Shown here in pieces: positions 2,622-61,207 of a stretch of DNA of 64,000 bases; positions within the stretch are counted from its first letter, which is position 1, and the number at the start of each line of letters is the position of its first letter. A program made the position numbers and the translations under genes. This DNA comes from Phoronis australis (lineage: Eukaryota; Animalia; Phoronida): the NCBI GenBank assembly GCA_002633005.1, contig NMRA01000153.1, positions 187,893-251,892 on the forward strand, given 5' to 3'. The notes beneath the pieces are model-generated. The model had not been told where the DNA came from, ran no database searches, and saw only the letters and a list, made by a program, of their open reading frames with translations.

Positions 2622-3236
2622 GTAAGAAATTAGTGTAATATAAATGACAATATAAAAATATCTTAAAACGGACAATCACCGCACAAATGAAAAAATTCAT
2701 ATTGATTCAACGTTTCGTCTATTCATTAGACATCATCAGGTTATAAACAATAAGACATCAAATTTCGATATACCAGCCATGTTACATCCATGAAGTGAAA
2801 TGAGTGAGGCAAAAAACTGATGTAATTATAAATATCTTGTCTCTTAAAGTAAAGGCTTAAGCGGAGGCATTTTTGATAGTATGTTAAGTAAAAATACAAA
2901 TCATATCCGATCATGTAAGATACATTTGTCTGTGTTAATTGGTCTATTGAGGGTAAAACGTTAGTTTTCCCCAACAACGTTCTAATTTGTCGTGCTGCAA
3001 CTACAAGGTTTTGCTTAAAAAATTCATTAGATTGCAAGTTAGCTTAATATTGTGTCGTGTACAGATAGGACAGTCAAGAAAGAACGAAGTGCCTCTATAA
3101 AGCAAACAAAGGCAGGCAACTAAAATCGATCACTTGATGTTATACAAACCATGATGTGGCTAGATTACTTAGTTATTCCTTGTGTCACAGCTCCAGTCTA
3201 GACCTAGTAGTGATGGATCCATATTCTGTTGTATAT

Positions 3237-3319
3237 TGTGCAACTCATGACCAGCTCCTGGTTGTGATGTGATGTTTATTAACACAATAACACAATCAGG
3301 AGCCAGAAATTAGAACACA
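3237..3319 (-). ncRNA. Singleton pre-miRNA-like hairpin at the distal end of the cluster
   Basis: CUGGCUCCUGAUUGUG/CACAACCAGGAGCUGG long stem with basal AAUUU/GAGUU and UGUGU/GCACA pairs. Confidence 0.5.
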
Positions 3320-3323
3320 GGCT

Positions 3324-3400
3324 GACGCCAAGGGACTGAAATTAAAGGGAGCTAATTATAATGTAGACATTAACTCAGCGAACACTTCAATACTAGCGAC
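3324..3400 (-). ncRNA. Diverged family-2-like hairpin d
   Basis: GAGUUAAU/AUUAGCUC and AUUGAAGU/AUUUCAGU stems; flanking similarity to copies a-c. Confidence 0.35.
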
Positions 3401-3512
3401 ACCTATTGCGAGTTACTCATCAGGTGCAAAGTAAACAGATACACTTATTTGTGGAATTGTTAAGTCTAGAAGCCGTTTTCCAATGAATGTGAACACAGAA
3501 CTCAGGTGATAT

Positions 3513-3596
3513 TGGGTGCACCTATTTTTGGAACTGTCAACACTAGAATCTGTCCTAACTAGTGCTTGGCAGTTGCCAAATACAAGTGAACAACTA
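3513..3596 (-). ncRNA. Family-1 pre-miRNA-like hairpin A; 5p UUUGGCAACUGCCAAGCACUAG (3580-3559)
   Basis: Stem UUUGG-C-AACUGCCAA-G-CACUAG / CUAGUG-UUGACAGUU-CCAAA, 12-nt loop, lower stem, CNNC (CACC) about 17 nt after predicted 3' cut. Confidence 0.6.
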
Positions 3597-3660
3597 AACA
3601 TCGTTATAAACAGTTAATAACTTTCAGCAACCAATATGAACTTAGAAATACCGTGATCAC

Positions 3661-3735
3661 TGAGTGTTTGGAACTGCCAAAGGTAGAATCAATATCACTA
3701 GCAATTGACCATTGCCAAATTAAACTGGACATCCA
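3661..3735 (-). ncRNA. Family-1 hairpin B (degenerate lower stem); 5p UUUGGCAAUGGUCAAUUGCUAG (3719-3698)
   Basis: Paralogue of A; first 12 nt identical to vertebrate miR-182-5p; deletion in the basal stem. Confidence 0.4.
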
Positions 3736-3829
3736 GACTTCATGTCATGGTCATTCGACTTATAAACAGATACAACTATCTACAAACTTGTACTGCGAAT
3801 TCAAACAAACATAGAAATACTGTGATCAT

Positions 3830-3912
3830 AGAATGCACTTGTGTTTGGAACAGTTAAGGCCAGAAGCTATTTAACTTGTGGTTGGCAGTTGCCAAATTAA
3901 AGTGAACACCCA
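3830..3912 (-). ncRNA. Family-1 hairpin C; 5p UUUGGCAACUGCCAACCACAAG (3896-3875)
   Basis: Paralogue of A with a weaker upper stem. Confidence 0.45.
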
Positions 3913-4043
3913 TACGTCCCAGTTTGATTTTATTATAAAATAGTTGAATTTGATGTGCTTTCATAGCTTCGTAAAAACTGGAGAGTTCGTTATTGCTTAA
4001 TATCAATAGTACTGATACTTGATGAGAATTGTGAAAGCGAAAC

Positions 4044-4116
4044 ATGGCAGTACCATCAAAATGAACAGTGCTAATTACAATCTCATCAGCACTGAAGCCT
4101 TTAACACTACAACCAC
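4044..4116 (-). ncRNA. Family-2 pre-miRNA-like hairpin a; conserved 3p arm AUUAGCACUGUUCAUUUUGAU (4075-4055)
   Basis: CAGUGCUGAU/AUUAGCACUG upper stem plus G:U-rich lower stem. Confidence 0.55.
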
Positions 4117-4159
4117 ACTATTGAGATTGAGAGTCATTGTAACAGTAATACCTAAACAT

Positions 4160-4380
4160 CAGGGCTTGGAATGACCAATGACAAAAAACGCGGAAACTTT
4201 GAAACTTTTACGGCCCAAATCATGCCCGATAACCATCCTTGAAATGGTCAATGTGACAAAAAACCGGGAGGACTAAAAAAAAAAAAAAACGTTACCACCA
4301 TCAGTAGCATGCGTCTGCGTCCTTTTAGCTCGCCCGTCCACTCCCAACCCACACATTTTTGGCTGCAGAGCGGTAGTATT
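4160..4380 (-). mobile_element. hAT-like MITE, inverted partial copy of 11506-12014, truncated at the assembly gap
   Basis: Near-identical reverse complement of about 11783-12014, starting with TIR CAGGGCTTGGAAT. Confidence 0.9.
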
Positions 4381-4387
4381 TGTCACT

Positions 4388-4541
4388 NNNNNNNNNNNNN
4401 NNNNNNNNNNNNNNNNNNNNNNNNNNNNNNNNNNNNNNNNNNNNNNNNNNNNNNNNNNNNNNNNNNNNNNNNNNNNNNNNNNNNNNNNNNNNNNNNNNNN
4501 NNNNNNNNNNNNNNNNNNNNNNNNNNNNNNNNNNNNNNNNN
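4388..4541. other. Assembly gap (N run)
   Basis: 154 Ns. Confidence 1.
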
Positions 4542-4644
4542 CTTCTCATGATGGTAATTCGATTCGTGAGGAGATCAACAACTCTCTAAAATTGTATAGC
4601 AACTACAACCGTAAAAATATGACAATCATTGAGGATTCTTAAGT

Positions 4645-4714
4645 GCTTGGCACCAGTAATATTGATAAGCGATGAGAAGTGTGAAAGCTACTCATCACAC
4701 CGGATTGTGCTAGC
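4645..4714 (-). ncRNA. Family-3 weak hairpin (near-identical copy at 5877-5946)
   Basis: GUGAUGAG/CUCAUCGC stem; the gtgaaagc motif (plus strand) recurs near 4031, 4884 and, as atgaaagc, 5357. Confidence 0.3.
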
Positions 4715-4936
4715 CTGTTTTTTATCAGCTATCCACAACCTTGTGTAATGAACAGAGTCCACTAGTTAAGAAAAGATGGCAATAAGGTATTGCTTAAATG
4801 AAGACTAATTATGAATGATGAGATTAATAGCCTGTCAAGCCTAAAAATTAACATCCACAGAACTCATGAGGGTCATGGTGTGGTGTGAAAGCTATAACTT
4901 CTACATTAAACACAAGCATAGGAATACGATGGTCAT

Positions 4937-5016
4937 TGATTGCACTTGTGTTTGGAATTGTCAAGGCTAGAATCTATTTAACTAGCTTTTAACAATGCCA
5001 AATTAAAGTGAACGTA
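4937..5016 (-). ncRNA. Family-1 hairpin D; 5p UUUGGCAUUGUUAAAAGCUAGU (5002-4981)
   Basis: AUUGUUAA/UUGACAAU and GCUAG/CUAGC pairing; CNNC (CAUC) about 18 nt downstream. Confidence 0.55.
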
Positions 5017-5062
5017 CACTTCCCATGATGGTCATTCCATTCATAAGCAGATAAGGTGATCA

Positions 5063-5147
5063 TTGGGTGCACCTATTTTTGGAACTGTCAAGACTAGAAT
5101 CTGTTCAACGAGTTCTTGGCAGTTGCCAAATCTAAATGAACACCCAA
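5063..5147 (-). ncRNA. Family-1 hairpin E; 5p UUUGGCAACUGCCAAGAACUCG (5130-5109)
   Basis: UUGGGUG/CACCCAA and CAUUUA/UAGGUG basal stem; AACUGCCAAGA/UCUUGACAGUU upper stem; CNNC (CACC) about 18 nt downstream. Confidence 0.6.
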
Positions 5148-5208
5148 ACTTGCCACGATGGTCATCATTTTTAACAGATAATTACTATGAACAAGTTGAA
5201 AAAACATG

Positions 5209-5275
5209 CCAGTATTATCAAAATGAACAGTGCTAATTACAATCTCATCAGCATTGAACATTTCAACAATACCAC
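5209..5275 (-). ncRNA. Family-2 hairpin b; 3p arm identical to copy a (5237-5217)
   Basis: 14 consecutive pairs GUAUUGUUGAAAUG/CAUUUUGAUAAUAC (3 G:U), then CAAUGCUGAU/AUUAGCACUG. Confidence 0.62.
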
Positions 5276-5521
5276 CAAGCTATTAAAATTGAGAATCATC
5301 GTAATATTATTTAAAAACTGAAACACTAATGATGACGATGCATGTTGAGCGCACCTATGAAAGCTACTTATTACTCTAGTTTTTGTTGCCACATGGTTAT
5401 TGACTATTTACTTTTACATCCAATTTCCGAAATAAGTTAACTGTCAAAGTACTAGTGATATCACTGCAAAAACTGTCCAAGAATTTCTGCATTGAATACG
5501 AATATGGAATACAATGGTTAT

Positions 5522-5603
5522 TGTGTGCACTTGTGTTTGGAAATGTCAAGGCCAGATTCCATTTAACTGGCTCTTAACAATGCCAAATTAAAGTGAACAC
5601 ATA
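5522..5603 (-). ncRNA. Family-1 hairpin F; 5p UUUGGCAUUGUUAAGAGCCAGU (5587-5566)
   Basis: GCCAG/CUGGC is a compensatory change relative to GCUAG/CUAGC in D. Confidence 0.6.
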
Positions 5604-5687
5604 CACTTCTCATGGTGGTCATTGTATTTATAAGGAGACGACTACAAATTTGTACAGTGAATACGAACATAGAAATATAGTGATCAT

Positions 5688-5771
5688 TGAGTGCAGTTAT
5701 GTTTGGAACTGTCAAAGCTAGAATCTAATGTTAACCAGCTGTTAACAATGCCAAATCCAAATGAACACCCA
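5688..5771 (-). ncRNA. Family-1 hairpin G; 5p UUUGGCAUUGUUAACAGCUGGU (5755-5734)
   Basis: UUGUUAA/UUGACAG, AGCUGG/CUAGCU and GGGUG/CACUC pair fully only on the minus strand (G:U). Confidence 0.58.
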
Positions 5772-6015
5772 CACTTCTCATGATGGTAATTCGATTCGTG
5801 AGGAGATCAACAACTCTCTAAAATTGTATAGCAACTACAACCGTAAAAATATGACAATCGTTGAGGATTCTTAAGTGCTTGGCACCAGTAATATTGATGA
5901 GCGATGAGAAGTGTGAAAGCTACTCATCACACCGGATTGTGCTAGCCTGTTTTGTATCAGCTATCCACAACCTTGTGTAATGAAAAGAATTCACTAGTTC
6001 ACAGTTGACAAAACT

Positions 6016-6089
6016 TGACAATATTATTAAAGTGGGCAGTGCTAATTAGAGTATTATGACCACCACTGTACAGTTCAACACCACTGCCA
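6016..6089 (-). ncRNA. Family-2 hairpin c; 3p arm AUUAGCACUGCCCACUUUAAU
   Basis: UGGCAGUG/UAUUGUCA, UGUUGAA/UUUAAUA and CAGUG/CACUG pairing on the minus strand. Confidence 0.58.
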
Positions 6090-6262
6090 TGCTATTGAGA
6101 ATTAAATTTGTGGCTAGACATGTTTTGTTGGAATTATTAAGTCTAGAAACAATATCATTTACACTTGACAATTGACTTTTGAGTGATAAATCTACCATAT
6201 GAAATTCACGGAAAATTGACCGGTGTTCTTGTTGAGGTCAAGAAATTGTTGAGAATTTATTG

Positions 6263-6334
6263 TGCGTAGAACTACACTGGAGTGTGCCGACATTAAATCT
6301 CAGCCAGCACATCTTCAGTGCAATAAACTACACA
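6263..6334 (-). ncRNA. Hairpin e (family-2-like loop); 5p arm contains UAUUGCACUGAAGAUGUGCUGG
   Basis: About 20-bp upper stem plus UGUGUAG/CUACGCA basal stem; first hairpin after the donor at 6447. Confidence 0.58.
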
Positions 6335-6447
6335 ACTGCTGGTGCAATTAGAAACACCCCACAAGACTTAAAATTTCTGTCAAAGTTGCTGTTAAAGACC
6401 CATGACTGAAACTCAATAGTTTCGTTGGTGGACGCCGAGTTACTCAC

Positions 6448-6548
6448 CTTGACTACATTGGATCTCTGAGGAAGCTTGTGCATCATAATTCTCTGACCAG
6501 TTTTCCCACATAACTCTGAGTGTACATTGCTCAGGAAAAGAGGTGACT
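6448..6548 (-). ncRNA. Putative first exon of the antisense host (pri-miRNA) transcript
   Basis: Starts at Inr TCA(+1)GT (6548) and ends at AAG/GTGAGT donor (6447-6442); the ATGs it contains open only short frames. Confidence 0.55.
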
Positions 6549-6660
6549 GATTTTGGGGTATCATTGCAGTGTTTAAATAGCCCACCAGTGTAGGATCCCT
6601 CTCTGGAAGTAACCAATCAGCAAGCATATCACGTTGTCCAATCAAGCGAAAAATGATTGG
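6546..6660 (-). promoter_or_regulatory. Pol II core promoter: Inr TCAGT (6550-6546), TATA TATTTAAA (6579-6572), three CCAAT boxes (6613-6617, 6638-6642, 6656-6660)
   Basis: TATA starts exactly 31 nt upstream of the Inr A; CCAAT boxes at about -65 to -112. Confidence 0.65.
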
Positions 6661-6840
6661 TCACAGGCATCAGTCCTGGAGAGGGAGTTCAGGCCTATTC
6701 ATGGATTTAACTGGACAGGATTGCCTGGGGGATTAGTACCCACTGGGATTAACAATCAACATACAAACTGTTGGCATCTGTCTACCTCATACTGTAGCAC
6801 ACCTCATAATTACCTTAAATTTGTTGGGGGTAGTGTACTG
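6661..6840. promoter_or_regulatory. Repeated GGATTA module copy 1
   Basis: Core atggatttaactggacaggattgcctgggggattagtacccactgggattaac; GGATTA at 6730 and 6746. Confidence 0.5.
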
Positions 6841-7429
6841 AAAGTTTACTTTGAACTAGTAAATTTTCAAAAAATGACATGTTTGGTACAAATTCATGCA
6901 TCTTTGTAAGGTCTTAATACTGTAGGTTATCTTTTATGTGATGAATACAACAATAACAAGGTTTTTATGGACTTGTTCTATTTCCTTGGCCATAAATTAG
7001 TTTTGAAATATTAAAGATTTGATATTTTTTATTTCTCACTGTTTTCATTTTATTTTCAAATCTGTTGGTTAAAATAATCATGTAAGATACTTTTTCGTAA
7101 ATAAATTCTATCCTAAATGATTTAAACTACAGTAAATGCAAGTGTTGATTTTGCTTTTAGTAGCTTTTAAGCTAGTTAAATAGATTTATGTTTTGTGTGT
7201 CTAATAAATGAAGTTGGCATCCAAAAAGCATACATTTCATTTTAGAATAATAATCCAATCGTAATTTTCAATTTCAACATTTTTGTTCTGATCAGTATTG
7301 ATTTTAAGATCTAGTGCTTCCAAGTATTGTTAGATTTGTCTCTGTTTAAAACAAATAGATGTTGGTGTTTGTGTTTTTTTATCTTTATCTTTTGTAATTT
7401 TTTCTCGTACCACAGACTAAGAATGGTGC

Positions 7430-8550
7430 TGTGATTTGGGCGTAATATTCATTTAATTTCTGGGTAGGTTCTTTTAGACTAGATTGTTTGCTATCAAATT
7501 AATGAGTTAAAGACACTGTTGAACTGTCAAATATTCGTCTTCTTGGTTATTTTATATCTTTACTTGGTTTAACTAAAGCAATAAAAGTGCTTGAATATAT
7601 ATATATACAAATCAGTAATATTCGTATCGTGATATTTTTAATCTTTTGTTACTGGACATATTGTTATCAATTTTCAGGAAACAATGTATTTTTGAATATC
7701 TTGAGTACAGAATAAAATAGATGGTCTTCCATAATTGTTTTGTTTTCATAACCCAACTTGTTGCATCATATTTATTTGTTGTGTTCTCTTCACTTAATTA
7801 TATCTCGCAACTTATAAAATATGAACAAGTTCTGAACTATACTTAAAAATTATAAAATGTTATCACTGACAGTTTTTTAATTATAAATTGTAGTATTTTG
7901 TCTCTCGTTAAACTTTCACATGTTTTACTGCTGAATATAATTATTTTTATTTTCTGTTCCTATGTGGAAATGATTTTGTCCATGAAATTAGTCCTGCTTG
8001 TTTTTGTTACAAGATGCTTTCTGAATTTAATTTTTTGGTAATTCTCTTAAATCATGGCCTTGTATTTGTTGAGTGAATGGGTGTAATATTGTTTTAATTT
8101 CTGGATTGTTTTTTGGGCTATAATTGATAGCTATCAAAGTAACCAGTAAAAGACTGCTGGTTGGTCAAAATATATTTTTTCTTGGATTATTTTGGAAATA
8201 AAACCACCTAGAAATTCATAACTACTGTTTAAGATTTACAGATTTATAATATTCATGCCATTAATTTTAATCTTTTCCTACTGAATGTATAATTATCAAT
8301 TTACAGAAAACCCTATATCTTTAAATATCTCAGCACATGATAAAGTATATCATCTCCCGTGTTTTTATGCAAGTAACCCAACTTGCTGCATCATTGATAT
8401 TTATCTGTAGTGTTTTCTCCACTAAGTTATGTCATGGTATAAGTTTTTAAGGTGTAAATTTATGTTGTTAAACTTTCACATGTTTCACTACTGAATGTAA
8501 TTTATGTTTATTTTCTGTTGGTTGTAAGATGTTTTCTGAATTTAACATTT
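7430..8550. repeat. Old direct duplication (about 7430-7960 vs 8080-8550)
   Basis: Shared blocks gtaatatt..ttaatttctgg, gctatcaaa, taacccaacttg..gcatcat, gttaaactttcacatgttt..ctgaat. Confidence 0.7.
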
Positions 8551-8822
8551 TCCTACATTACAGTGTGAAACAAAAAGAAACAACATGCCTAAAAAGCAAT
8601 TAGTAAAGCACATTTTTTTTCTTTTCAATTATACTGGGCAATCATATTTTGAAGACCCAGTGTTTTTGATTTAAGACAGTTAAACTGATGCATGATTTAA
8701 AAGATATTTTTTACCACAGCACTTTTACAATTTTTACCCTATCTCCCTTATCCAAATAACCCAATTCCCCTAACCATGTCTTTTCAAATTTGTTCCTTGT
8801 TGTTAAATTAAGGAGGTTCTCT

Positions 8823-9010
8823 ATAACCTGTTTGATCTATTGACTGGTATGGTGAGGGACATTATCCCACTCAGTGATTTAACTAGGCAGGGTTACCCAT
8901 GGGGATTAGTGCCTGCTGGGATAAACTGCCAACTGGTGGTGTGTAGTTGCAGCTGTCTATTTCATGCTGTTAACCTGAGAATAGTTTCTTTTCATTTAAA
9001 AAGGTGTAGT
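8823..9010. promoter_or_regulatory. Repeated GGATTA module copy 2
   Basis: gtgatttaactaggcagggttacccatggggattagtgcctgctgggataaac; GGATTA at 8903. Confidence 0.5.
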
Positions 9011-10740
9011 TAACAGCACCTTGACTAATAAACAAGCTATTGTTAAGAATTGTTTGGTGTTTATATACATGTCAAGATCACTCTTATGTTTATTATGTTT
9101 GTATGGGTATGGTATCCTGATGATTGTGGCCTGTTGTACTGGACATCCAAGTATCAATATTCAACAGGAAATTTTAAATGGGCAAAAGAATTAATTTGGT
9201 TTATCATGTTGCCCTAGTGACGTAGTTGTAGGTTTTTGTGTGCTTATCTTGGCAGAGTGTAATTTCTAAACTGAAAAATTATTAAATCCGTCTAGTATAT
9301 CAGCTCCTATTTGAATACCAAGTTCAGTGAGATGGCTTCAGTATCAGTATCTTATTAGAACCATTGCAACAAATTTATTTTAGTAAAACATATTATCTCT
9401 AGTACATGTTTTTGTGCATTTAGTAAAGGGCAAGTGAAACTTAGACTTATTTTTTGTCAGTGCACTATGGGGACACCTATTTCTATGGATTAAGCAATTT
9501 TTTGGTTTTAATATTTTAGGTTACATATTGGTGAAAGATCTACTTTTTAGTTTTGTTTATTGCTCACAGAGTATCACGCATGTAGTATTGTTTTTATTTA
9601 AATTTCTTGAATATTTGAAAAATATGTATTTGTGATTATTGAGCTATAAGTATGTATTCTAGTAAAATTCATGCTGAGAAAAATACCTTGGAACAGTAGG
9701 GCAAATTAACTTTATTTGTAAATATTAATTGAATAAGCTGCATTATTTTGCAAACACTCACATTGTATATCTATCCCTAATAACTAAACAATAAATAACA
9801 AAAAGATTTTAAATTGTAATGTAACTCTGATACACCTTATTTTTCATATTATTGATTTGCTCTCCATAGTGTATAAAAAATTCCCCACGATTCTTAAGTT
9901 CTGAGTTTGCTTTTAATGCAAGTTGTTTGTTACACTGTATCAGGGCACACAAAATTGGAAACAATTTTTTTTAAAATAGGAATTCAGTTAAAAGCCTGTC
10001 TTTTCAGTGGTATTAATCAAATTAATCTCGTTTTGAAGGCCTAGCTTGTGCGTTGCAGCAGTTACTTGGATTTTTATTATTCATTTCCATCCTATTTCAG
10101 TGGTTAAGTGTTAAAGATATGTAGGACTTTATTGACATGTCTTTAAATTTAGCTAAATATCTACAATTAAAGTATAGCATTTAATTCAGAAAAAGTGATA
10201 TTTTCTGTAAGCAGAAATTCATTAGGATTTAATTGTTGACTTTATACAAATATATGCTTATTGTTATTGTCTCTCCATAGTCATTCAAAAGTGGGTGAGA
10301 AACATTCCTTATAGTTTCTTGAAATGCATAACAGGTAGTATTCATTTTAAAGCTTTGTATGAATCCATTCAGCCATTTCCGAGATATGATCTTCAGAAGT
10401 GCCAATTTTTTACATTTTTTATGTAGTTTTACATTACCTTAGTATTGGGCATCCTCTTTGATTTGGTTGCCAGATCAAGGTAATTTTGTAAATGTTTAGT
10501 ACAACAAGTTTAATGTCTAATACTTGGATTTAAGTCCAGAAAATGCTATTTCAGGGGGTAAAACTCCGTATTTGATTGAAGACAAATGCCTTTTTCTTAT
10601 GACAATTTAGGGATTATTTTAAACTATTTTCCCAATAACTTGTATTGAAAATTATTAACTGGACCCCAATTTTTACATAGTTTTTTATCTATATTGGAAA
10701 CTGAAGAAATTTTGCTGTAATTTGTTTGCTTGATAAAGTT

Positions 10741-10880
10741 TTGCCCCATCCCTGGATTCAGCTAAGCAAGGTTACCTGTGGTGGATTATCCCCTGCTATG
10801 ATGAACTGTGACTAATTGACAGGTGACATACTGACAACTCCTGGGAATTACCCTTCAGTTGAAGAAGGTGTTGTATATTA
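10741..10880. promoter_or_regulatory. Repeated GGATTA module copy 3
   Basis: ctggattcagctaagcaaggttacctgtggtggattatcccctgctatgatgaac; GGATTA at 10783. Confidence 0.45.
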
Positions 10881-10989
10881 AAAATTGACATTGAAACAAC
10901 AAACTAAACAAGAATGACAGGTTCCCTGTCAACCTGTAAATCATATTCTTCTTTATTTTTCTTTGGAATGACTAAGTGTCCTAGTTTTC

Positions 10990-11066
10990 AATGATTATCT
11001 TGTCATTATGCAAGATTATTACAAAGATAATGATTATCTTGTCATTATGCAAGATTATTACAAAGA
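10990..11066. repeat. Perfect 39-bp tandem duplication
   Basis: aatgattatcttgtcattatgcaagattattacaaaga x2. Confidence 0.9.
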
Positions 11067-11505
11067 CAATTGGCTAATGTGTGTAGTTAAGTGGCAAATA
11101 TTATTTGTCAGAAACCTCTTCTCTTACAGTATATTTTTCTTGTTCATTAACCTATCATATAATCACTAACCATTATTTTTTGTATGAAATTTACAAAGTC
11201 TATTTTTATTCTACTGGCTACAAAAGCATGTCTGTAATTTTCTAAGGTCTTTTAGCTAATAACTCCACTGTCAAAAATGAAGTTGTCATAATTCTTTGAC
11301 AAAAAGCAGTCTTAATTTTTGACAATTAAACTGTTGGGCTGGAAGGACTTAAAAGAAAACTCCAGATACTGTTTTGTAAGTAATGAAATAAGGAACTAGA
11401 ATTTACAAGTTCGGTGTGAAAAAAATGTTTTAAAAATTCAGCATCTAAATGAAAAATCCTGTTTTTATAAAAAATGTATAAAAATGGAATTCATTGCACA
11501 TAATA

Positions 11506-12014
11506 CAGGGCTTGGAATTTTCCGCGGAAACGCGGATTTCCGCTTTTTTCAAATGTGCTTTCCGCTTTTTTTTATTTTTTCGAGTAAAAAAATCGGATTT
11601 GATGTAAAATTTCCGTGGCAAATTCCTTTCTTACCACGGCGTTGCAGACGACGTTCACCTTGAAAAGCGGAAGTTGCTCTTTATGTTTCGGAGGAACGTA
11701 AATTGTCAACATTGCCGGGGCACCTGGGACAGCGTGGTGGGATTTTCAATGGCGTCTCGTGTTATTGTTAAGCGCGGCACCAATACTACCGCTCTGCAGC
11801 CAGAAAGTGTGTGGGTTGGGAGTGGACGGGCGAGCTAAAGGGACGCAGACGCATGCTACTGATGGTGGTAACGTTTTTTTTTTTTTTTAGTCCTCCCGAT
11901 TTTTGTCGGGGAAAGGTTCACATTGACCATTTCAAGGATGGTTATCGGGCATGATTTGGGCGGTAAAAGTTTCAAAGTTTCCGCGTTTTTTGTCATTGGT
12001 CATTCCAAGCCCTG
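11506..12014 (+). mobile_element. hAT-like MITE with 6-bp TSD
   Basis: 13-bp perfect TIR CAGGGCTTGGAAT/ATTCCAAGCCCTG; ATAATA on both flanks. Confidence 0.88.
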
Positions 12015-12058
12015 ATAATAAGATCCTGCGGGTTATTTAAGAAATCTGATAGTTTGTG

Positions 12059-12287
12059 CAAGACTTGGAATTTTCCTCTTTTTTAAAAGGATTTCCTCTT
12101 GTTTGATTTCCAATTTCTTCTTTTTGGCTCTTTATCATTATTTTGACTTGATTCATGCAAAAATGTTTATTTCAGTTAAATTTTACGACACAAAATATGT
12201 ATCTTTCACACAAGCCCATTTATTTGTGGAGCGATACATCACCCGGGAGATTTTCCTCTTTTTTGTCATTGGTCATTCCAAGCCTTG
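12059..12287 (+). mobile_element. Older, shorter relative of the same hAT-like MITE
   Basis: Ends CAAGACTTGGAATTTTCC and TTGGTCATTCCAAGCCTTG match the neighbouring element's termini. Confidence 0.65.
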
Positions 12288-12778
12288 TTGGTATGTTAAA
12301 TATACTATTATCTTGAATGGGTTTACGCTCGAGCTTCTGAAAAATTATGAAAAATATTCCAGTCATCAGCTGTGAAACCGAACTCAAAGGGAGAGGGGTA
12401 GCCAATATTAGAAATATCTGTGGGCATTGTTGAAAATTTATGTATTAATATTTCAAAAATATTGATTGTTAACTCAATTAAAAAGAATGGAATGCTCTTG
12501 TTTTTCCTGCATTTAACCTGATGTAACAGTATGGTTTGGAATACAAAAGGACAAAAATGTGTCAGTGCTACTGACATATAATCAATGTTATCTTTTTTGA
12601 AGAGCTTGTGTCTTCCACCATTTTTTAAACACAGTCTATTCTAAAGTCCCAGTTTGCTGATTCATTGTTACACCATGTTGAGGAGATACAACTCTTGGCC
12701 TTGTCATTGTTAATTCTAAGTCATTGCTAAAACTTCACTGCAAGATAATATGAGATGCACGTGCGGCACAGAGGTCTG

Positions 12779-13179
12779 TGCTGGGTTGCATGAAACAGTC
12801 CCAAATAGGGACTCGACTAAGTTGCCTAAATCTTTGACCTATCTGTGTCTTTGTTAACTCTCAGATGGAATCTTTTTCTACCATTTCATCTTTAATATGA
12901 CCTCCTCATCCTGAGCCCTGAATTCAATGAAAACAAATAGGGACTTAGTCCTTAAGTTAGGAGTGTTGCATGAAAAGATCCCCAAATAGTTTCATTAATA
13001 ATGCCAATTCAGTGTTGAGTTCACTCTCAATTTTTTTATCAAAGTCAAAAGTTGACTACATAATGAAACTAAAATAGCAGAAGAAATGACAATCGGTGTT
13101 TTCACAAGTCCACAAATATGCAGTAGATTTAGGGAACTTAGTTGAGTCCCTATTTGGGACTCTTTCATGCCACCGGGCA
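12779..13179. mobile_element. Harbinger-like MITE (partial relative at about 42950-43335)
   Basis: About 55-bp imperfect TIRs (..gcatgaaacagtcccaaatagggactc..); CTG on both flanks. Confidence 0.7.
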
Positions 13180-13866
13180 CTGATGAGTAATATGAGTGTA
13201 GATACTGATGAGGGATACATGTGTTTCTTTTTCCTGTTTTTGCTGTAGCTTAACCTTGCTTTGTCTCTGCTGCAAGCCAGAATTAACTATATCTCAACTG
13301 TTGACATGGACATTGCGAAGCACGCTTTTTACTGTAATTTTCTACCTATTTAACTCACATTCATGTATAGCTGTCAAGAGATTTTTTGTTCAATGTCTCA
13401 AGAAAATTAAATATAAAATTTTGTCCAATTATTGGCTTGGTTTTTACAATGTAGATATTTAAAACAAAATTTTTCTCAGCGAGTTGTGCGCCCATATTTC
13501 TTGTTAAATAGCCTCAAAATCGTGCCCAATGCAATCTTAGAAGGGTTGGCCTTCCTGTTGAGTTGGCGACATTTCGACATTGCTTTTTATTTGCCAATGC
13601 CCTCGTCAGTTTGAGAGAGGAATAACTTTTCTGTCAGGAAATGGAAAATTTGCGTCGCTCAGTAACCCAGTTTAGAATTTGTGTTTTAGAGCAGCTTTAA
13701 GGGATAATTTTCCTTTAATTTTCTTAAGGAAAATATTAAAAAGTCTGACTCCTAAAAGTGCTTTCATAATCTTAGACAACTTGGTTCTTACAAAATTGTG
13801 AAGTGGACCAAAGTCTGGAGGGTACTGTATGCTGTCTGGTGTGGGAAGCTACAGAAAGTTCCACTG

Positions 13867-14050
13867 ATAAACCTGTTTGATCTATTCACTGGTATTGTCA
13901 GGGGGTTATTAACCCATTCATGGATTTACCTGAGCAGGGTTGCCTGTGTGGATTAGTACCTGCTGGGATAAATTAGCCTCAGTCTAGGTGTTGGCACTGC
14001 ACATTTCATGCTACTAAGCACTGGGTAATTGATTATCTTACACTTCAACA
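13867..14050. promoter_or_regulatory. Repeated GGATTA module copy 4
   Basis: atggatttacctgagcagggttgcctgtgtggattagtacctgctgggataaat; GGATTA at 13950; 5' flank closely matches copy 2. Confidence 0.5.
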
Positions 14051-15599
14051 GCTCTGCTTAATGATGGTTGGCTTTAATAATGGGCCAATGAAACTTACTG
14101 TAATGAGGCTTAGAATTACATGTCAACTCAGTCATAGCTCATTGTTGTAGCTTGCCTGTGTTTTCTTGGAGTTTTCACAAGGTTATTAAGGACTTTGGAA
14201 AAATTGACCAATTTTGGCCAACTTCAGAACATGATATCTCAGATACAGCTGGTTGAAGCCTTCAGATACTATAATTTATGCACTGTTCTTTAAAATGTTT
14301 GTGGGCATTAGGGGCTATAAAGAAATAGGACTTTAAGGATTTTATGAAAGAACTAAAAAGTTGCATAAAACCAAAATTTTACAGCATTTTAGAAATCCAT
14401 TACGGCATTTTTGAAATTTCATCTGGACATTTATTTCAAATAAAATTTGGTCGTGTTAGGGATACCAGTGTTTTACTTAGATTATATTCCTTGTGTTAAG
14501 TTTTACTAAATAGACATGGTGAGATGAATCGGGTAATGTATTACTGGTGTTAAGTAGAAAATGCTATGTTGAAGGGCTTTCTACTTTCTGAATATGTGTT
14601 CTTTTACTTAATTAAAATTGCTGATATTGTCTATATACACACACTTGTTGATAAGGTCCAAAGAATGTTGATATACTCAATTTTGTTGTTTTTTGATAAA
14701 GCTACTGTTTCTCACAACAATTGTTCATTAAAACAAATAAAACAAAGTAAAACAAAAGGAATCTGTGAGACTCCTGGTAACGACAATTTTACCTTTTCTT
14801 GATCTCTGTCTCACAACAAACTGGGCCAAATTTTTGTAATTTCGCGAGAACAGCAGTCGATTATTAATGTTGTTACTGTTAATGTTGATCTGTATTATTA
14901 TTGTTACTTCCGTGTGGCGTCTCAGTTTTATCATTTTGAAATGTCTAAATTTGTTATTTCATGGGTCTTGTTTTATTTGCTCACTGTACATATTTATGCT
15001 CGAATTTATTGTATTTTATATTTCACCTAATATGTATCATATAATTAAATGTTGTTTTTGTTCGAGATAAAAATTGTTCCTGTTGTGACATTTCTTTTTG
15101 GCCCAGCAAACATAATAAATCTTAAATAAACAAATAAAAAAATAGTTACAAAATTTAGTAGTCAACAGTGAGGACTATTTGCTGTTGTGAACATCATATA
15201 CTTCTTTATTTGACTAGTCATCTATTGTCTGTGAATCTGTTGTGATATTGAAGCCTTTTCTGTTTGTTTAATGGTATCTTCATATGGCTTCACCATGTTA
15301 CTTACAATGTAGATATGTTGGGCCTTAATAAGTCTTGGCATCACCCAGTTACATACAGTGGATGGAAATTTGTATGTTTGTTACACGAGTTAAATCTTGG
15401 CTTCATCTAGACTTACACTAGAGGACAATTAGTGTGTTATGTTATAGGTAAATCTTAATTTAATATGGATATCTAACATGTATTTTTCTTTACAAAAGCA
15501 TTTTCATGATTTCAAACAGGTGATTTCTCCTGCTTGTTTGGTAAAGTTGTGGATACAACCCCCAAGTTTCTAACAAAATAATTTCAGCATGCATGAGCT

Positions 15600-15790
15600 G
15601 TTTCCCTATTCAGTGTCATCATAAGGTGCTGTATCCCAATTTCTGATTTAACTATGCATGGTTACCCATAGGGGATTAGTTCCTACTGTGATAACTGGCC
15701 AACAGATTAGGTCCTCAGGGGAGCATTTGATGTTGTGAACTATGGATTAATTGTCTGTCACTTAAAGAAAGTTGGTTTACTGAATGCTGG
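15600..15790. promoter_or_regulatory. Repeated GGATTA module copy 5
   Basis: ctgatttaactatgcatggttacccataggggattagttcctactgtgataac; GGATTA at 15673 and 15744. Confidence 0.45.
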
Positions 15791-17397
15791 CCTTTGAAGC
15801 AATAAATTAACCAGTGTGGAATATAATTTTGATTTTATTCTTCTGTGGATGGGGTAAAATCTCTAGTCTGGGGCAGTCCCTAAAATTTGGGACACCGAAA
15901 ATCAAGCCGTAATTGAATCTCATTGATTCTGAAAATTGGGACATAGTAAATTTTTCAGTTTTCTCAAATATTACACACACGCTTTGTGTCAATAAAATTT
16001 GGTAATTGACTGCAGGTCACAAAATTGTTGAAAATAGTAGCCAATGTCACATATTCCTGGATCCCCATATAGTGTGTAACAACATCCAGTTGGATGATTG
16101 TGTGTCGGCGAGTGTAATTCTTGGAAAAGATGATATTGGCTATTTCTAAAATTTGGAAACTGCTCGACCTTAAGCCAAATAGGAAATTTTTGACTGTACC
16201 GACTCACTCTGTACGAAAAATAAAGAAAGTGACATTTCAATGCATGTTAAATAAAAAGTCTTCCTTTTTTGTTTGAGTCATACCTGTTGCCCGCTCACTT
16301 ATTTCACATAGCAGTAAGTGAAAAAATAACATCAGGTTTCTATTTTTCAAAGACAGATTGCTCAGCGCGAACCAAGCCAGTAATAAAATAACATTTTCTT
16401 AATGTTTTAGTTTTGTTGGAATTTGATAAAAGAGATTTTCCGCTTATCTGCCATATTGTATGCTAAACATATGAAGAATTATCATATCAATAATTGAAAA
16501 TAAAACTGATATCCTGTAAAACTCATGCATAATGAAATCACAATTTGGCAGTGAATTGACTGTTTATGTTTTTTGTGAACAGTGTGTTTTCTCTAAGCTA
16601 AGGACAATGTCTTGATGAGCCTGGCTGGTGACCGACAGACGGAAGCAGGCGACTTGTTCTAACCCATGCCTCGATTGTGTCCCTGTCCTTACGATTCTTA
16701 ACCAGATTGAACAACAGTTAGTCGGTTCCCACTTGTTTTTTCTCCCGTTTTGTGTTCGTACTGAGAACTGCCTTGGTGTGACATGGCAATTGAAGCACGG
16801 GTTACTGAAAAGAGATTGACAACAAACTGATAGAATGAAATTGATATTTTTTATTTTTCGATTACCGTAATTCTTCACTTATTTTAAAGGCTGAATACTT
16901 TGCTTCAAATGATAATTTTGACAAAATAAAATTTCACCCCTACCATATTGTGGGCTAAGTAGCTGAAGAATTACGGTTTCTGTACGTTGTTTCAAATAAT
17001 CAAACTTTTGTTTGAGTTTGCTTTATGTCCAGAATGAGTTCAAAGTAAGATAAAATAAGAATGAGCCAGTTTATTCATCTAAAAAGTAACACCTATGAGT
17101 GCCATTTCTATAACAGTGTTAACCATAGAAAACAGAAAGCGTTGATTTGCCCTATTTCATGACTCAGTTTTCTATGATGCGTCGTAAAATTAAATCAACA
17201 ATTGACATTCGCCCTCTTCTGAAGCCTGATGTCCCGAATTGATGCCTGTACTGTATTACAAAAACAGCGATGACATTAACTAAGAACTACACAGTTCAGA
17301 ACATTCACTTTACTACTTTCAGGAAGTGCTTTGATATGCACAAGTTGTTTATATAAATGACATTGCCATTAAATGAAGTTCATTATATAAATTGCAG

Positions 17398-35308: not shown

Positions 35309-38300
35309 GTGAGAATTATTAGTGTTGTATTGAATTTGGTATAAAGTTACATTTTGCCCCATTTAACTGGCTAAAAATGAAAATGGAATTGGGCCTTTTA
35401 CTCTCATGAATTAGTTTACGGTAATAACATTCCTTACTGTAATAGGATTATGTGTCCATTATAAACAAGAGCATCTAAACCATTGCGAATTCAAAAATAG
35501 GGCATGTATGCATTTCCTGTCACTTAAGTTACTGGCTTATTCAGCAAAAATTCAAGCTTGGTGGAGTGTGATAATATTTTAAACCCCGAAGCAGTTGGGT
35601 TTAATATTTAACATTGGCAGCTAAATATCATGCGTTATGCAGCTTTGATTTTGAATACTAGATTGGAAGAATTTTTTAGAACTGTTATTATTATATGCCT
35701 GTATCCAGGCCCATGTACCTATATTCTGAATTGGTTGTATGCATCTACATAGAGAACACTTGAGTTAAACCAAGGATTAATTTTTGAAGTAAGAGGCAGG
35801 TTGACTTGATGTGGCTGTATAACAGCATTCCGTCCAAGATGCAAACTTTTGATATACGTACCTCTTACTGTTGTAAAAGTGATCTCAATTTGCTCCTTAC
35901 TCAGACAAGAAGGGGTTTCTGAGTTGGCAAAAAATTGACAGTTTGTTATTCCTTGAGATCTTGTTCAGTGCATATAATAACACGCTGTGGAGCATCAACT
36001 AGAGATGCCATGGAGCGTCAACTTGTAGAGACTTGTCTCTAGCAATAACGAACTGAATTCACATCCAATTTTACTAAAAACAGTTGAAATCAACTTCCTA
36101 AAGGTATCATTTCTTAATCAAAAGTAAGGTTTCTTGTGTTGGAGGGTGGGTTTTATGCTGCTTGAATCATTCCAAAACGTATAGATCTGATGTTGACCTG
36201 CTGTCAACTTGACATTCATCATTGTATGGATAAATTAAGTACTGAGAATGGAAGGCACACGAAAAACAAGAATAAGAATTGCACACTTACAAGGGATAAC
36301 CCCCTTTGCCTATAACTGAAGTCCGCCACATGACTGTGCGTGAAATACTTCATCAAAAAATATTTTTTTTTAAAAAACATTACTTCAGGTATTGGCACAA
36401 AGGCTTAATCACTGACATATACAGTATGCTCTTTGGCTATGATATGCTGATAATTGTCTAGAAATGTGATATGGATTGATACATTAAGCATTTTGTCTTG
36501 AATTGTTTGCTTTACAAAATAACTGAAAGCTATCACTTTTGATGGGAAGTGATTGACTTCAGCTTATTTCACATACTTTCGAAATTTTGATTGTGTTAAT
36601 GTTTAAACAATGGCTATGGTACCGTAGTCATAATTTCCTCAGCAAGTTTGGCCATCAAAAGTGTGAAGCAAATCAGAACAAATAACTGCAAATTCATGTA
36701 AAGATACAGTTAGGAGTCGTTCTGTTAAATCCATTTTTACATTGAAGCTTAGATGAGGGGAATTAAAAATATTGTTTTGTGAGGTTGTCCTCAGTTTTTG
36801 GTCTAAGGCTTCCCGATGATCAGTTGAATATTTTGTATTGGTAAGGTGTATGTTTTGAACAAGAGCAAGAAATACAGCATATGGTGACTTTCCTTCTGTG
36901 GATGATAGTTGGCCGCTCGATGGAATGTTCAGGTGGTCCCTTTGCTCTACCTTTGGTTCTGCTGTCAGCTTGAATTCAGTTGTTTAATGTGGGTGGCTGT
37001 GTTAGATTTTGTGTGCATGTACCTTAATATTTGATAGACTTGTGGGTATTTACATCTTTTGTTGATTGAAACTCAAACATAAAAAGGAAATGTGTTCAAG
37101 GAGTTTTATTCCATTTTCTACCAAAAAAAAGAAAAATCCAGAAATAATTTGTGTAATGAATTTTTCTCGATTATATAACAAATTTTTGAGGGTGTTTGTA
37201 AGGCAAAAACTTGTCAATCTTGTTAGACTTGAAAACCCCATATATTTATTTGTGTAATATCTGGCACTTTGACAGAACAAACACTTGAAAACACAGGGAA
37301 AGGTGACACCAGAGGGACAGGGATGCTGATTGTGTTGACAAAACAAAGATAAACAATAGTGGTTTTGAATTTGTTCACAGGAAGCCTCGGTTAATTACTC
37401 TTCCAATCTTTGTCAATAAACAATACAGTGTGAGTTGCCACTTTTTAATCACCGGTGACATTTCGATTAATGCTAGAACTGTTTTGTATACTGTTGCTCT
37501 TCTCTGTCAACTAGATCAGAGAGCAATTATAGTCAATGGAAAATAATTAATGGAAGCTAACAAAGCCTGTAGGTTTTTGGTTCTTCAGTATGTTTTTTTC
37601 TTATTTTGTGGTCTATGGGGTGCTTGAATGTTCAGCCACTCACCCNCCCCCCCGCCTCTGGGCAGTATTTATGCATTTTTCAGTTACTAATGCTATGTGG
37701 AATAATTGTACCACTACTAATTTTGGACAAAACTACTGGCAATTGCCAGAATCACCCTTTTTTCATTGTTGTGAATGGCCTGTGTTTCAACAAATTGGTA
37801 GATAGCAGCTATGCTACACAAGTTGAGACTGTAAAATGCTTGTTTTTCATGAAAAAATAAAAAATTGAATTTCACTTGTCCACCACACTGCGTCCTAAAT
37901 TGGGGTGATTTTGTGGTAGATTGAGCGCCGTTACGAAATCCTTAATCTTTCCATTTTTATGCAGGTACTTAACTACAATTGGTCAGGCTGAACAGGCTTT
38001 TAAGCTCGTTTGTAGGTTGGTTGAAGTTGAGCATCATGCTAACTCTTGTTTTTCTAATGAAACTGGTTAAGTGTGGTTTAATGCATTAGCTAAGTATTTT
38101 AGGTTCATCAGGGGTCAATATCGCAGTTAGGGGTGAGAAATTACTCCTATGGGACCTAAAATACTCTGACCAGTCAGCTTAATTGGACTTGAATGATTTG
38201 TGAAGGTCATAATTGATGTTCTATGTCAATTTTATTAAAATTAAGTTGTTATGAAAGCATAACATTAAAACTTGACACAATTGGTTAGTTTGTGGACATC

Positions 38301-38880
38301 AATTCACTTTATTGCTGCAATAATTGCATAAATATATCTTATTCAGTGAGGCGTGGAATATATTGCAAGCAGTTTATCCCGTTCAATCCGCCATGTGACC
38401 AAAAAGATGGCAAATTGAATGGGATAAACTGCTAACTGTAAGTATTGTAGACAATTTTTATCAAGAAATTCATTTGTTACTTATTGGTTTTAGGATTTAT
38501 TTTTTCTTCATATTGGTCAAATGTTTATTAATTGAAAAGTATGTGGCCTCGCTTGTGCTTAAAAGCCTACCAGAGGTCTCCATCAAGATAAAAAGCAAAA
38601 TTTGTAATAACAGTAGTTTCTTCATATTAGAACACAATGTGGCGAAACAGTAAAATTTCATTTCATGGAAAATTTCAACAAGAGTAAGCAAGAAGACAAG
38701 TTTTCACCACCAATTAACTCACACTGAAATTTTGAAATTTTTGAAACGTATTAAAAATGTACACTGAACATTTGAAAAATGAAAAAATGACAACTTGTAT
38801 TTTGGTTCGACTTTAAGGCAATTTCACCAAATAAATTCTTCTGTTTACTACCACTATGGTAATAACAAATCAGTGAAAAT

Positions 38881-55630: not shown

Positions 55631-55724
55631 CATGACGAAGAGTGCATTGGGTTTGCCACTCTTCCTGACCAGATACACAGAAAGGCTGTCAAGAAAGGGT
55701 TCGACTTTACCTTAATGGTAGTCG
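55631..55724 (+). CDS. SEPT4/SEPT5-like septin (gene 2) exon, polybasic region
   Basis: atttcag/gtaagt; [31 protein letters not shown]. Confidence 0.93.
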
Positions 55725-58464
55725 GTAAGTGCTATGTTCTAGGACTGGTTGTTCGAAATATCAAAATTGCTTTGTCACTGCCAAAAATTTGGTTATATTT
55801 CGCCCTTCTATGTGACTAAATCTTGCAGCTTTATCTGCATTGGAATGCTGGGCAAATTTGTGTTGTGACAAATTGTTTTGTTTGCAAAAGTTAAAATCCT
55901 ATGAGTAATTATTGTGGTTAGCTGATGGTGACCATACATTTTATGTGGTAAAGAACGACAGACCATTTCCCAACACTGTTGACCCTCCCCGCACTATCGA
56001 AGCTTCGGTTAGCTGCAAAGTTAAGCATCAGTGTTCCCATCAGCTTCTGAATTACCGGTAGACGTAAAACTAGTTCAGAGAAGTTATCGCAAGGGGGCGC
56101 TAACTGGATCTTTGGTCGTATGCCTGGGAGTTATTGTCCTTTTCATCAAAAATGGCAAGAACCTCTCCCTCTACGAAATATAAAATAGAATGTCAACTTG
56201 ATAAGGCAGTTGCCATGGTGCACAAGAAGATGACATAATAGAAAGTTGACTCTTGAATAGGCTAACAGTTGATCTGGTATGGTTGGAACTCAATAGCGGA
56301 GTTGCAACCGAATCGATTTAACGATTGCGCATGTCCGGAAATTAGGGTGCGCAAAGGCTACTGGGATTGTTGATGGTAAACGGGATGGCCGACTGGTTTG
56401 CACGACGTGTAATTTGTGTGCATTAAACTACGCTGCTGTATGTAATTCTGCCGCTANGAGATTTTTTTAATTTAATTAAGTGTAGTACATGAGAGTTTAT
56501 TTCAGTGACCAACTAATACACGTGTGAAAATAAGAATGTCGGAAACTGGAAGTGTGACCTCATACAATATAATAGCATAAAGAATCCAGAAAGTACATGG
56601 ATAAATTGAAACGTAATTCTTATGCTGACAAAATAATGTATACTATACAAAATATTGACAATTGTTGCCCAGGCAACGTCCTTGTTCTGTCACCTGCTTA
56701 TGTATCATTGCATCATCAGTCTTGAAAGATAAAAACAGTAATCAACTAAAAACTCACACTCCCTGTGTCACAGATTGATGGTTCTTGGAGCGTAGTTTTC
56801 ACCCAAAGTTCAGGCCCTGTAGTTCACTTCAAAAGGAGTTTACAAATTTCCCTCCAAACCCGCCTTTGGGTTGTCAAGGGTTACAGAGTATTATTTTGTT
56901 TCAGGGAATTGTATGGGAAAGCCGTGTTTAATATCTGTTAATGGAGTAAAACCAGATTTGGTATTCTTTTAAGAAGTAAAAGTAGACTTCATCAGCAGTG
57001 ACAGATATCTGATTTTGTTGACAAGGGGGAGAGGGTTTATTCATGTTGATGATGCCGTTTTGTGCTTGTGGGGTACTTTTTTGACTGTGTTCCCTAAGCA
57101 GGTGTTCAACCCTATTTCCAAAACAATAAGAAAATATCAGTTCCTTGCAAACTCAAAAAACACTTCTCCTCTGAGTAAATAACAAGTTGAGAAAATTTTA
57201 TAAAGTGTCTAAATTAAAAGTGCACTTCTGGGACGGAACATTGGTTTACAACCGCTTTAAACCGTGCACCCTTTCCTGCCACTGTTCAGTTATTTCAGAA
57301 TCAGAACTGTTTATTGTATGTAGGTCTTGGCTTCATAATACAGTTATTTGCACTCTCATGATTGCAAGTTTAGTCTTCGTAGCTGCTGTAGGTGCAAGGT
57401 GAGCGGACCAAATAACGAGATGTCCCACCATACATCAGTTTGGCTGTATGAAGCAGTCACATATACTCAGACATAACTAAAAATACAAATAGTGTGAGGA
57501 AGACACTTTTAATGTTGTGAGAGTTTACTGAAGTGTGCACTTCAGGTGCAATGCCCATGTTTGACTGAAATGCCCATCCACGAAATCTTCAAATTTTCAC
57601 CTTTTTAAAGTTAATTTTCGACTTAACGCCCACCCACAGTTTATCTGACCGAGACTTTCAAGCTTTCTCGTCCACTGGATTGCAAATCGTGGTAGCGTAA
57701 GAGTTGCCTAATGTAGGGATCTTTACTTACTTCCCAGGTCTTTAAAATCTTAGTTGATGTCAACTAAAATTTTCTGTCACTCTACATAATTGGCCTACTT
57801 CCGTGCTCTGTGGTCTGTTTCTCAGTCTATTGGTTTTTGCCTTTCAACTTTTTACTAAAAACCAGTCTAGAGATGGCTAAAAAATAGTTTGCTTCACAAA
57901 AATCACACTGAAGCTGAAAGTCAGAAAATCTGTTGACAAATCAAAGTTAAAAGACAAGAATCCATAGTCTGCTGGAATAAATTGCTGACAAAACGTTTTG
58001 AGAAATGCAAAAGACAAAAAATCAACTTTTGACTATTCATTGTCAGATTTTTTAATCATGTTTGGCTAAATGCCAAATGTCACTTAAGTTGTTTTGTTAA
58101 AGCATGATAGGAAATATGGAGATGAAACTTAAGTGGGAATTTTGTGTGACATTTTAGCCAGTTACCACGAACCACTCGCAAATGTGGACCAAAAGATGGC
58201 TCTGTCAGGCTGAACAGGTTGGTAGTCAAGGGTCCTTCATTTGTCAGTCGGTCAAAAACATTTCTTACGTGCTGCAAAGATAATATAAAATAGCTCTTAT
58301 AACCAAGAAACGAGAACATTGGTTTACATAAAATTCAAAAAGATTATGCTAGTAAATGACGGACGATAAAAATGGAACAAATAAAATTAACCAAGTCTGA
58401 AACTAATCAAAAAGAAATGAAAAATGGAAAAAGAGAGCAGGGGAAGAGGGAAGTTATTGAAGTA

Positions 58465-59952: not shown

Positions 59953-60265
59953 TAGTCCCTGATAAGAAAAATAATTGTTAAAGAAAGTATGCAGAATAGA
60001 AAAATTAGTAAAGTTACTGCTTCCATGCAGTAAATTTATACAATCTGCACTTTTTTAAAATTTGAATGTCGTAGTTCAATCCTCTCTTCACAAAGGGCCT
60101 CTTTGATTTTTCTTGACCTATCACCCGTTGTACAACGGAAATATGACAAAATGGTTCTAGTAAGTTGAAGCTACTTTTAATTGGCATTTGACTTTTAAGG
60201 TAAAAGCACCCAACCATCAGTATTTATGTTTTCCCAACTGTAAACAGCAAGTTGCTTTTTTTCAG

Positions 60266-60352
60266 GTGAATCTGGACTAGGGAAGTCAACACTCATCAAC
60301 AGTTTGTTTCTCACAGATCTTTACAAAGATCGCAAAGTACCAAGTGTTGAAG
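60266..60352 (+). CDS. SEPT4/SEPT5-like septin (gene 2) exon, P-loop; GC donor
   Basis: tttttcag acceptor; [29 protein letters not shown]; donor AAG/gcaagt. Confidence 0.93.
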
Positions 60353-61080: not shown

Positions 61081-61207
61081 AAAAATTACAAAAGACTTTA
61101 GAAATAGAAAAGAAACATCTGGAAATCACAGAAGGGGGCGTGCGACTTCGTTTAACCATTGTTGACACTCCGGGATTCAATGATGGCCTGGACTCGGAAA
61201 ATGAGAG
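61081..61207 (+). CDS. SEPT4/SEPT5-like septin (gene 2) exon, G3 motif
   Basis: ttttgcag/gtatga; EKLQKTLEIEKKHLEITEGGVRLRLTIVDTPGFNDGLDSENES; homologous to exon 127-250. Confidence 0.93.

Follow-up and report, generated by a model that had tools for sequence, protein, structure and literature searches.

The 64,000-nucleotide window of the Phoronis australis genome analysed here carries a septin-2 gene on its plus strand. Three stranded RNA-seq runs confirmed splicing of the junctions 249–710, 844–1311 and 1428–2519 (14–36 reads each), and the next exon, located by tblastn, begins at 17398. The 14.8-kb intron between them (2623..17397, plus strand), defined upstream by RNA-seq splicing and downstream by tblastn, houses a hairpin array in antisense, with all of the reported array hairpins lying inside. 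A tree of the exon-encoded septin-2 protein, built with 46 of 120 listed homologues, placed it among the Lophotrochozoa (98/97) and separated it from the molluscs sampled (95/95); these 46 homologues gave no finer placement below Lophotrochozoa. Other features accompany the septin exons: a partial copy of the 3′ end of exon 2 directly after that exon (855–916; 89% identity over 62 nt), further high-copy repeats with reads on both strands in the introns (2145–2310 and 2670–2800), and a second, divergent septin gene downstream of septin-2, also on the plus strand, with exons across 55646–63190. The end of the window (63705–63998) consists of a 30-nt unit in tandem with one frame open.

The array comprises about 15 minus-strand hairpins in 3.1 kb, belonging to three families: family 2 (hairpins a–d), family 3 (e and f, with h and g added by eye) and family 1 (seven copies). 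A preliminary description of this DNA had reported three copies and one diverged copy of what we call family 2, and all four proved real, each site forming a single hairpin on the minus strand. Hairpin a (4044..4116) has a predicted mature 3p product at 4073–4052, beginning UAGCACUG, a star at 4106–4085 and an 11-nt loop. Hairpins b (5202..5281; predicted mature 3p 5235–5214) and c (6010..6098; predicted mature 3p 6044–6023) share this start (UAGCACUG), with the 3′ part of the product diverged in c. Copy d (3324..3400) has an altered seed (UAGCUCCC) and is likely decaying. The 12-mer core of the family occurs three times in the window at no more than one mismatch, against an expected mean of 0.6, and 3 of 100 shuffles reached three occurrences. 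Searched with a model of all four copies, the window contained no fifth one, and the next hit was unrelated (E 0.93).

The same description had begun the 3p arm at AUUAGC. Read-supported hairpins in oyster, Capitella and Platynereis instead suggest that the mature product starts 2 nt further in, at UAGCAC. We anchored the cut register on this motif, so the overhang geometry provides no independent test of processing.

Family 3 includes hairpin e (4681..4762, minus strand), whose predicted 3p product (4712–4691) begins UAGCACAA and which folds at z −5.3 with a CNNC motif at +17, and its near copy f (5913..5994, minus strand). The first hairpin of the array, h (6263..6334, minus strand; z −4.6, CNNC at +17), resembles family 3 by eye, and the last one, g (3237..3319, minus strand), carries a miR-2-like AUCACA in its 3p arm and folds on both strands. 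The blocks containing e and f differ at 6 positions over 226 nt, and the e block abuts an assembly gap; given this near identity and the adjoining gap, e and f may be uncollapsed alleles or else a recent duplicate. The seven family-1 hairpins (about 3508, 3655, 3826, 4932, 5060, 5518 and 5683, within 3508..5770 on the minus strand) have a predicted 5p arm beginning UUUGGCA, in which nt 2–7 equal the miR-96/182 seed as given in PMC3273822. Folding is good in five of the seven and poor at 3655 and 3826; two further remnants of this family lie at 3434–3476 and 6124–6183.

Like canonical animal microRNA precursors, which are unbranched, with two arms of ~22 nt, at least about 16 pairs and a loop of at least 8 nt, hairpins a, b and c form 17, 19 and 17 pairs in the predicted 22-nt duplex, with loops of 11–14 nt, compared with 14 pairs in d (predicted folds, in the register anchored on the motif). 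On the minus strand, a, b, c and d fold at −29.6, −29.6, −24.0 and −20.8 kcal/mol (z −3.4, −5.7, −1.8 and −2.3). The corresponding plus-strand folds are far worse, at −11.1, −11.4, −15.1 and −9.9 kcal/mol. This asymmetry bears on the notion that the small RNAs of the locus are intronic products cut from the septin pre-mRNA on the plus strand. The few RNA-seq reads over the array are indeed all plus-strand, and family 1 and g fold well in that orientation, but family 2 fails to do so (z −0.05 to −1.6, with d at +0.6) and similarly sparse plus-strand reads occur in other septin introns, which leaves this reading scarcely credible.

Under a loose criterion the array stood out little in its number of hairpins (10, versus at most 6 in real control segments and at most 6 in 30 shuffles), and a stricter z filter was used. 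At z ≤ −3, the minus strand contained 11 hairpins in 3.2–6.3 kb compared with 7 in the other ~61 kb of the window, the copies being non-independent; the plus strand contained 6 and 19, respectively. Outside the intron, the strongest hairpin of the window lies at 38363–38441 (−42.7 kcal/mol, z −8.9) and has 22 contiguous pairs; another occurs at 38085–38170 (z −4.8). Neither had an Rfam match at gathering score, and they represent either an inverted repeat or another small-RNA precursor.

Processing features were assessed with the CNNC and other motif criteria given in PMC11701709. Nine of the 15 hairpins carry a CNNC motif 16–18 nt past their predicted 3′ cut, the background being 0.092. Within family 2 it is present in b and c (at +16 in both) and absent from a and d. 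All four copies have U at position 1, and a, b and d have U at position 9. No basal UG was found at −14 in family 2, and CmR was inconsistent in a and b.

Strand-blind alignment of one arm against the other yielded 24 G·U versus 2 A·C oppositions in the family-2 stems, two classes that should be about equally frequent (P 2e-5, a value inflated by shared ancestry). Such a bias suggests that a minus-strand RNA has been under selection, with the reservation that many of the wobbles were inherited together. The family-2 consensus also shows double changes in 2 of 21 pairs, with a positive covariation term. Family-3 stems gave 14 G·U versus 5 A·C in the same kind of alignment; family 1 showed no strand bias (10 versus 10), and its covariation did not exceed that of shuffled controls (101–123 of 500).

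These numbers weigh directly on the view that the locus is a tandem or satellite repeat, or a set of palindromic relics of transposons, with hairpins that form incidentally and undergo no processing. The region is patched together from duplicated modules of 100–300 nt, duplicates inflate all counts, and the equal folding of family 1 on both strands without significant covariation would suit such an origin. A DNA palindrome, however, predicts no excess of G·U over A·C of the kind seen in family 2; the array combines three unrelated hairpin types with a common size and CNNC spacing, has no further copies in the 64 kb, and lacks the pile-up of foreign reads found over an actual transposable element. 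We therefore consider an incidental repeat very unlikely, and for family 2 in particular the identity of a MITE or palindromic repeat was rejected on the wobble ratio and the absence of copies elsewhere in the window. The element used for comparison is a high-copy MITE-like sequence inserted beside hairpin a at 4158–4387, outside the cluster proper, which runs into a 154-N assembly gap (4388–4541). It belongs to a ~510-nt element with terminal inverted repeats, likely a MITE, present in two opposite copies (11506–12014 and 4158–4387) and heavily covered by repeat-derived reads. A coding repeat was likewise discarded, as no ORF of at least 80 aa with septin or repeat character was found in the array.

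The preliminary description had argued for microRNA paralogues from a conserved 3p arm facing a drifting star arm. The identity of the 21-nt 3p arm in a and b was confirmed exactly (4075–4055 and 5237–5217, minus strand), with the corresponding segment of c (6046–6026) departing at 4 of 21 positions. The identical run, however, extends over 37 nt (permutation P 0.005), spanning the 3p arm and every position of the loop (11/11) and reaching into the 5p arm; it is thus not arm-specific and also fits recent conversion. In the comparison of the three paralogues a, b and c, the seed is invariant in 8 of 8 columns (P 0.04), the loop in 7 of 11 and nt 9–22 in 8 of 14, and the longest invariant run reaches P 0.12, so that the contrast between arms is a weak argument when taken alone. 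The star arm had also been said to keep its pairing through G:U. Across the family the wobble bias is indeed strong, but pair by pair this holds for only two of the five differences between a and b in the predicted 22-nt 5p arm; two others are paired only in b and one only in a.

Upstream of hairpin h on the minus strand lies a candidate promoter (6572..6660), with three CCAAT boxes (6613, 6638 and 6655) preceding a TATA-like box at 6579–6572. Among the 21 CCAAT sites of the window this is the only such triple, and one arose anywhere in the window in 0.3% of random placements. A consensus 5′ splice donor (6442..6449, minus strand), one of five such sites in the window, follows ~100 nt past the putative start, and at 6448 it may mark where a short non-coding first exon ends. 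The A/T skew is reversed across the array relative to the neighbouring intron (P 5e-12) and flips at 6767, just beyond the CCAAT triple; since these features were noticed after the fact, the probabilities given for skew, CCAAT boxes and donor are descriptive only. Boxes and donor are all positioned to serve a minus-strand transcript, and together they likely represent the promoter of the array. A reversed A/T skew is the trace expected from germ-line transcription.

In three stranded, unstaged RNA-seq runs (X1–X3, 18–19% of each read), minus-strand depth was zero in all bins of 3001–4000 and 4501–7500, while the bins of 4001–4500 were filled by MITE reads ending at 4158–4160. Primary microRNA transcripts are short-lived, and septin itself is thinly covered at its junctions; the absence of minus-strand reads is thus weak evidence against transcription of the array. 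In unstaged samples it is compatible with embryo-limited expression, without being proof of it. Elsewhere in the intron, around 14233 (window about 14137–14572), some 20 minus-strand reads were present in run X3 alone, from either a unique transcript or a repeat.

The missing minus-strand reads would also be expected of a former microRNA cluster that has fallen silent and is eroding. Turnover is apparent in the array: hairpin a is a chimeric copy with a 3′ flank of family-3 type and no CNNC at +16 to +18, d and the family-1 copies at 3655 and 3826 are decayed along with the remnants at 3434 and 6124, and the MITE-like element has inserted at 4158. Yet at least 10 copies still fold at z ≤ −3, the promoter-like motifs are intact, and the seed is preserved in a, b and c even though c differs at 4–6 of the 14 positions of nt 9–22. 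A dead or dying array is therefore unlikely.

Taken together, we consider it probable that a–d are microRNA paralogues within an array of about 15 hairpins which has its own minus-strand promoter in a septin intron and yields microRNAs with AGCAC- and UUGGCA-type seeds. What upholds this part of the preliminary description is the hairpin structure, the strand asymmetry, the CNNC position, the promoter-like element and the read-supported look-alikes of other lophotrochozoans. Under this reading, RNA polymerase II would start near 6545 on the minus strand and produce a transcript whose first exon is short; from this single polycistronic primary transcript, Drosha and Dicer would free 22-nt duplexes, and the family-2 3p products would carry the seed AGCACU. 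Families 2 (AGCACUG), 3 (AGCACAA) and 1 (UUGGCAA/U) could then act jointly as repressors of mRNAs that carry GUGCU- and UGCCAA-type sites. The array itself would have evolved by birth and death, of which the chimeric a, the decaying d, the remnants and the MITE insertion may be traces.

Database searches assigned the hairpins to no named family: nothing in the window reached an Rfam gathering score, in agreement with the earlier statement that family 2 could not be matched to a known one, although unnamed counterparts do exist in supplementary tables for oyster, Capitella and Platynereis. The mir-29 model gave no match to a or b at E ≤ 10. The mir-2 model gave none to a or b either and matched g and f weakly (23.4 and 19.3 bits, gathering 45.5); g also matched mir-11 at 21.8 bits (gathering 45). 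Matches to mir-392, mir-2012, mir-2574 and plant MIR models were rejected as weak, generic hairpin similarity, and a metagenome locus recovered by a 20-mer search was dismissed as chance, with a match of only 23–26 nt, no hairpin and a model E of 0.93.

A resemblance to miR-29 had been pointed out, and it does extend over nt 1–6 (UAGCAC) of a product that is likewise 3p. The seed of a, b and c, however, is AGCACUG, as opposed to AGCACCA in oyster and Platynereis miR-29, and the predicted mature a is identical to Pdu-Mir-29-P1 of Platynereis at 11 of 22 positions by eye. Over the full length miR-2, another 3p product, is closer: oyster miR-2a shares 15 of its 22 positions with a and 13 with b, by eye (binomial 7e-5 for a, before correction for the families compared). 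The Mir-2 seed is AUCACAG, from which a–c depart at nt 3 and 7, while g has AUCACAA; the main oyster mir-2 cluster sits in PPP4R1 rather than in a septin gene. With neither defining seed present, a–c were placed in neither Mir-29 nor Mir-2. By its predicted seed, family 2 would act like the AGCAC group, and it may descend from Mir-29 or have arisen from Mir-2. The locus may record how such a seed arises, one change from miR-2 leading from g through e/f to a/b/c and converging on the miR-29 seed.

Five hairpins of the array (a, b, c, e and f) have predicted AGCAC-core 3p products in tandem within 2 kb, the arrangement of a possible class of lophotrochozoan loci. In the oyster Crassostrea gigas, a 3p NAGCACU occurs in 4 of 19 novel precursors (m0214, m0314, m0317 and m0347; Table S5) and in at least five further candidates of Table S7 (m0316, m0341, m0342, m0345 and m0348) (PMC4138081). 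The reads of these nine hairpins fall between the blastula and D-larva stages; eggs gave no more than 3, and the 8 adult organs none (PMC4138081). The clusters on scaffold370 and scaffold392 resemble our array in the 3p NAGCACU, the tandem order and a spacing of a few hundred bases, and m0556 and m0558 are antisense, larval hairpins with a UUUGGCA 5p arm like family 1; oyster cluster 20, antisense in its host gene, also contains a hairpin whose 5p arm carries UUGGCA (PMC4138081). The oyster products differ in having U or A at nt 8 instead of G and 3′ halves unlike ours by eye, and reads are known for the oyster loci whereas the array here is known from sequence.

The larval expression of the nine oyster look-alikes, without a single 3p read from adult organs, female gonad among them (PMC4138081), also argues against a real microRNA cluster that is active in the germ line or adult tissue rather than in the embryo, in the manner of testis-specific fast-evolving clusters. 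Every structural point would fit such a cluster equally well, and the skew reversal over the array speaks for it, but on balance we regard it as improbable.

The annelid Capitella teleta has an embryo cluster on scaffold_488 that its authors likened to miR-430, and for which 9 of 15 rows, among those listed, yield UAAGCAC (PMC8915122). It shares with our array the tandem duplicated hairpins and the AGCAC core on the 3p arm, but its products are displaced by 1 nt (seed AAGCAC), so the seed is not identical. Closer starts are found elsewhere in the same source: Candidate-23e begins UAGCACUG and has nt 1–8 in common with a, b and c (12/21 identity over the whole length, by eye), and Candidate-23a–c begin UAGCACAC, with nt 1–7 common to e and f (PMC8915122).

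For Platynereis, the raw miRDeep2 list contains 48 rows with a Mir-29 seed label, and 13 of 15 rows among those listed are tandem UAGCACC hairpins on scaffolds 13 and 24 (PMC12257675). Their apical stem is of the type found in a and b (GUGCUGAU / AUUAGCAC), their mature start is the same, and the stars of two of them end in GUGCUGAU, as in a and b; in contrast to our array, the miR-29 seed is retained. These arrays consist of near-identical copies from 24–144 h samples (PMC12257675). As an observation in its own right, the raw list thus holds large miR-29-seed hairpin arrays with tens of thousands of reads that are not in the curated annotation: in the curated table, UAGCAC appears only in Mir-29-P1 and P2, and the tandem hairpins are absent (PMC12257675).

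Our searches found no study linking AGCAC arrays across phyla, with MirGeneDB, subscription papers and bioRxiv supplements, which may name some of the loci, outside their scope; a full-text search for six motifs listed 31 papers, with no lophotrochozoan microRNA study among them by title. Similar seeds in the four species could be convergent. We suggest, with considerable reservation, that they instead represent an ancient, unnamed class of embryo-specific tandem AGCAC-core microRNA arrays, often accompanied by UUGGCA seeds and common to molluscs, annelids and the present lineage, whose precursors outpace family models while the seed is kept and which would play in spiralians the role of miR-430 and miR-309 in clearing maternal mRNA. 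If true, family models, and one or more curated lists, have missed a class of microRNA arrays. If AGCAC arrays do recur across phyla, enrichment of GUGCU sites in the 3′ UTRs of decaying maternal messages becomes testable with existing oyster, Capitella and Platynereis data; should the link between phyla fail, the locus is an ordinary lineage-specific microRNA cluster. To our knowledge, no microRNA is known to clear maternal mRNA in spiralian embryos, and a literature search for a spiralian microRNA with this role found none.

By analogy with these systems, the array is likely a fast-evolving embryonic microRNA cluster. We lean towards embryonic timing of its expression, while clearance of maternal mRNA by its products is a more speculative extension. 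The predicted start matches that of tandem-array microRNAs from oyster and bristle-worm embryos and larvae, and on this ground the array may be kin to the clusters responsible for maternal mRNA clearance in embryos of fish and flies. Of these, the miR-309 cluster is embryo-limited and was assembled from the seeds of old families (PMC4238352). The array resembles Drosophila miR-309 and zebrafish miR-430 as a fast-evolving tandem cluster that mixes old-family seeds (PMC4238352); embryonic expression and maternal clearance are properties of those two clusters, to which the phoronid array is likened by analogy.
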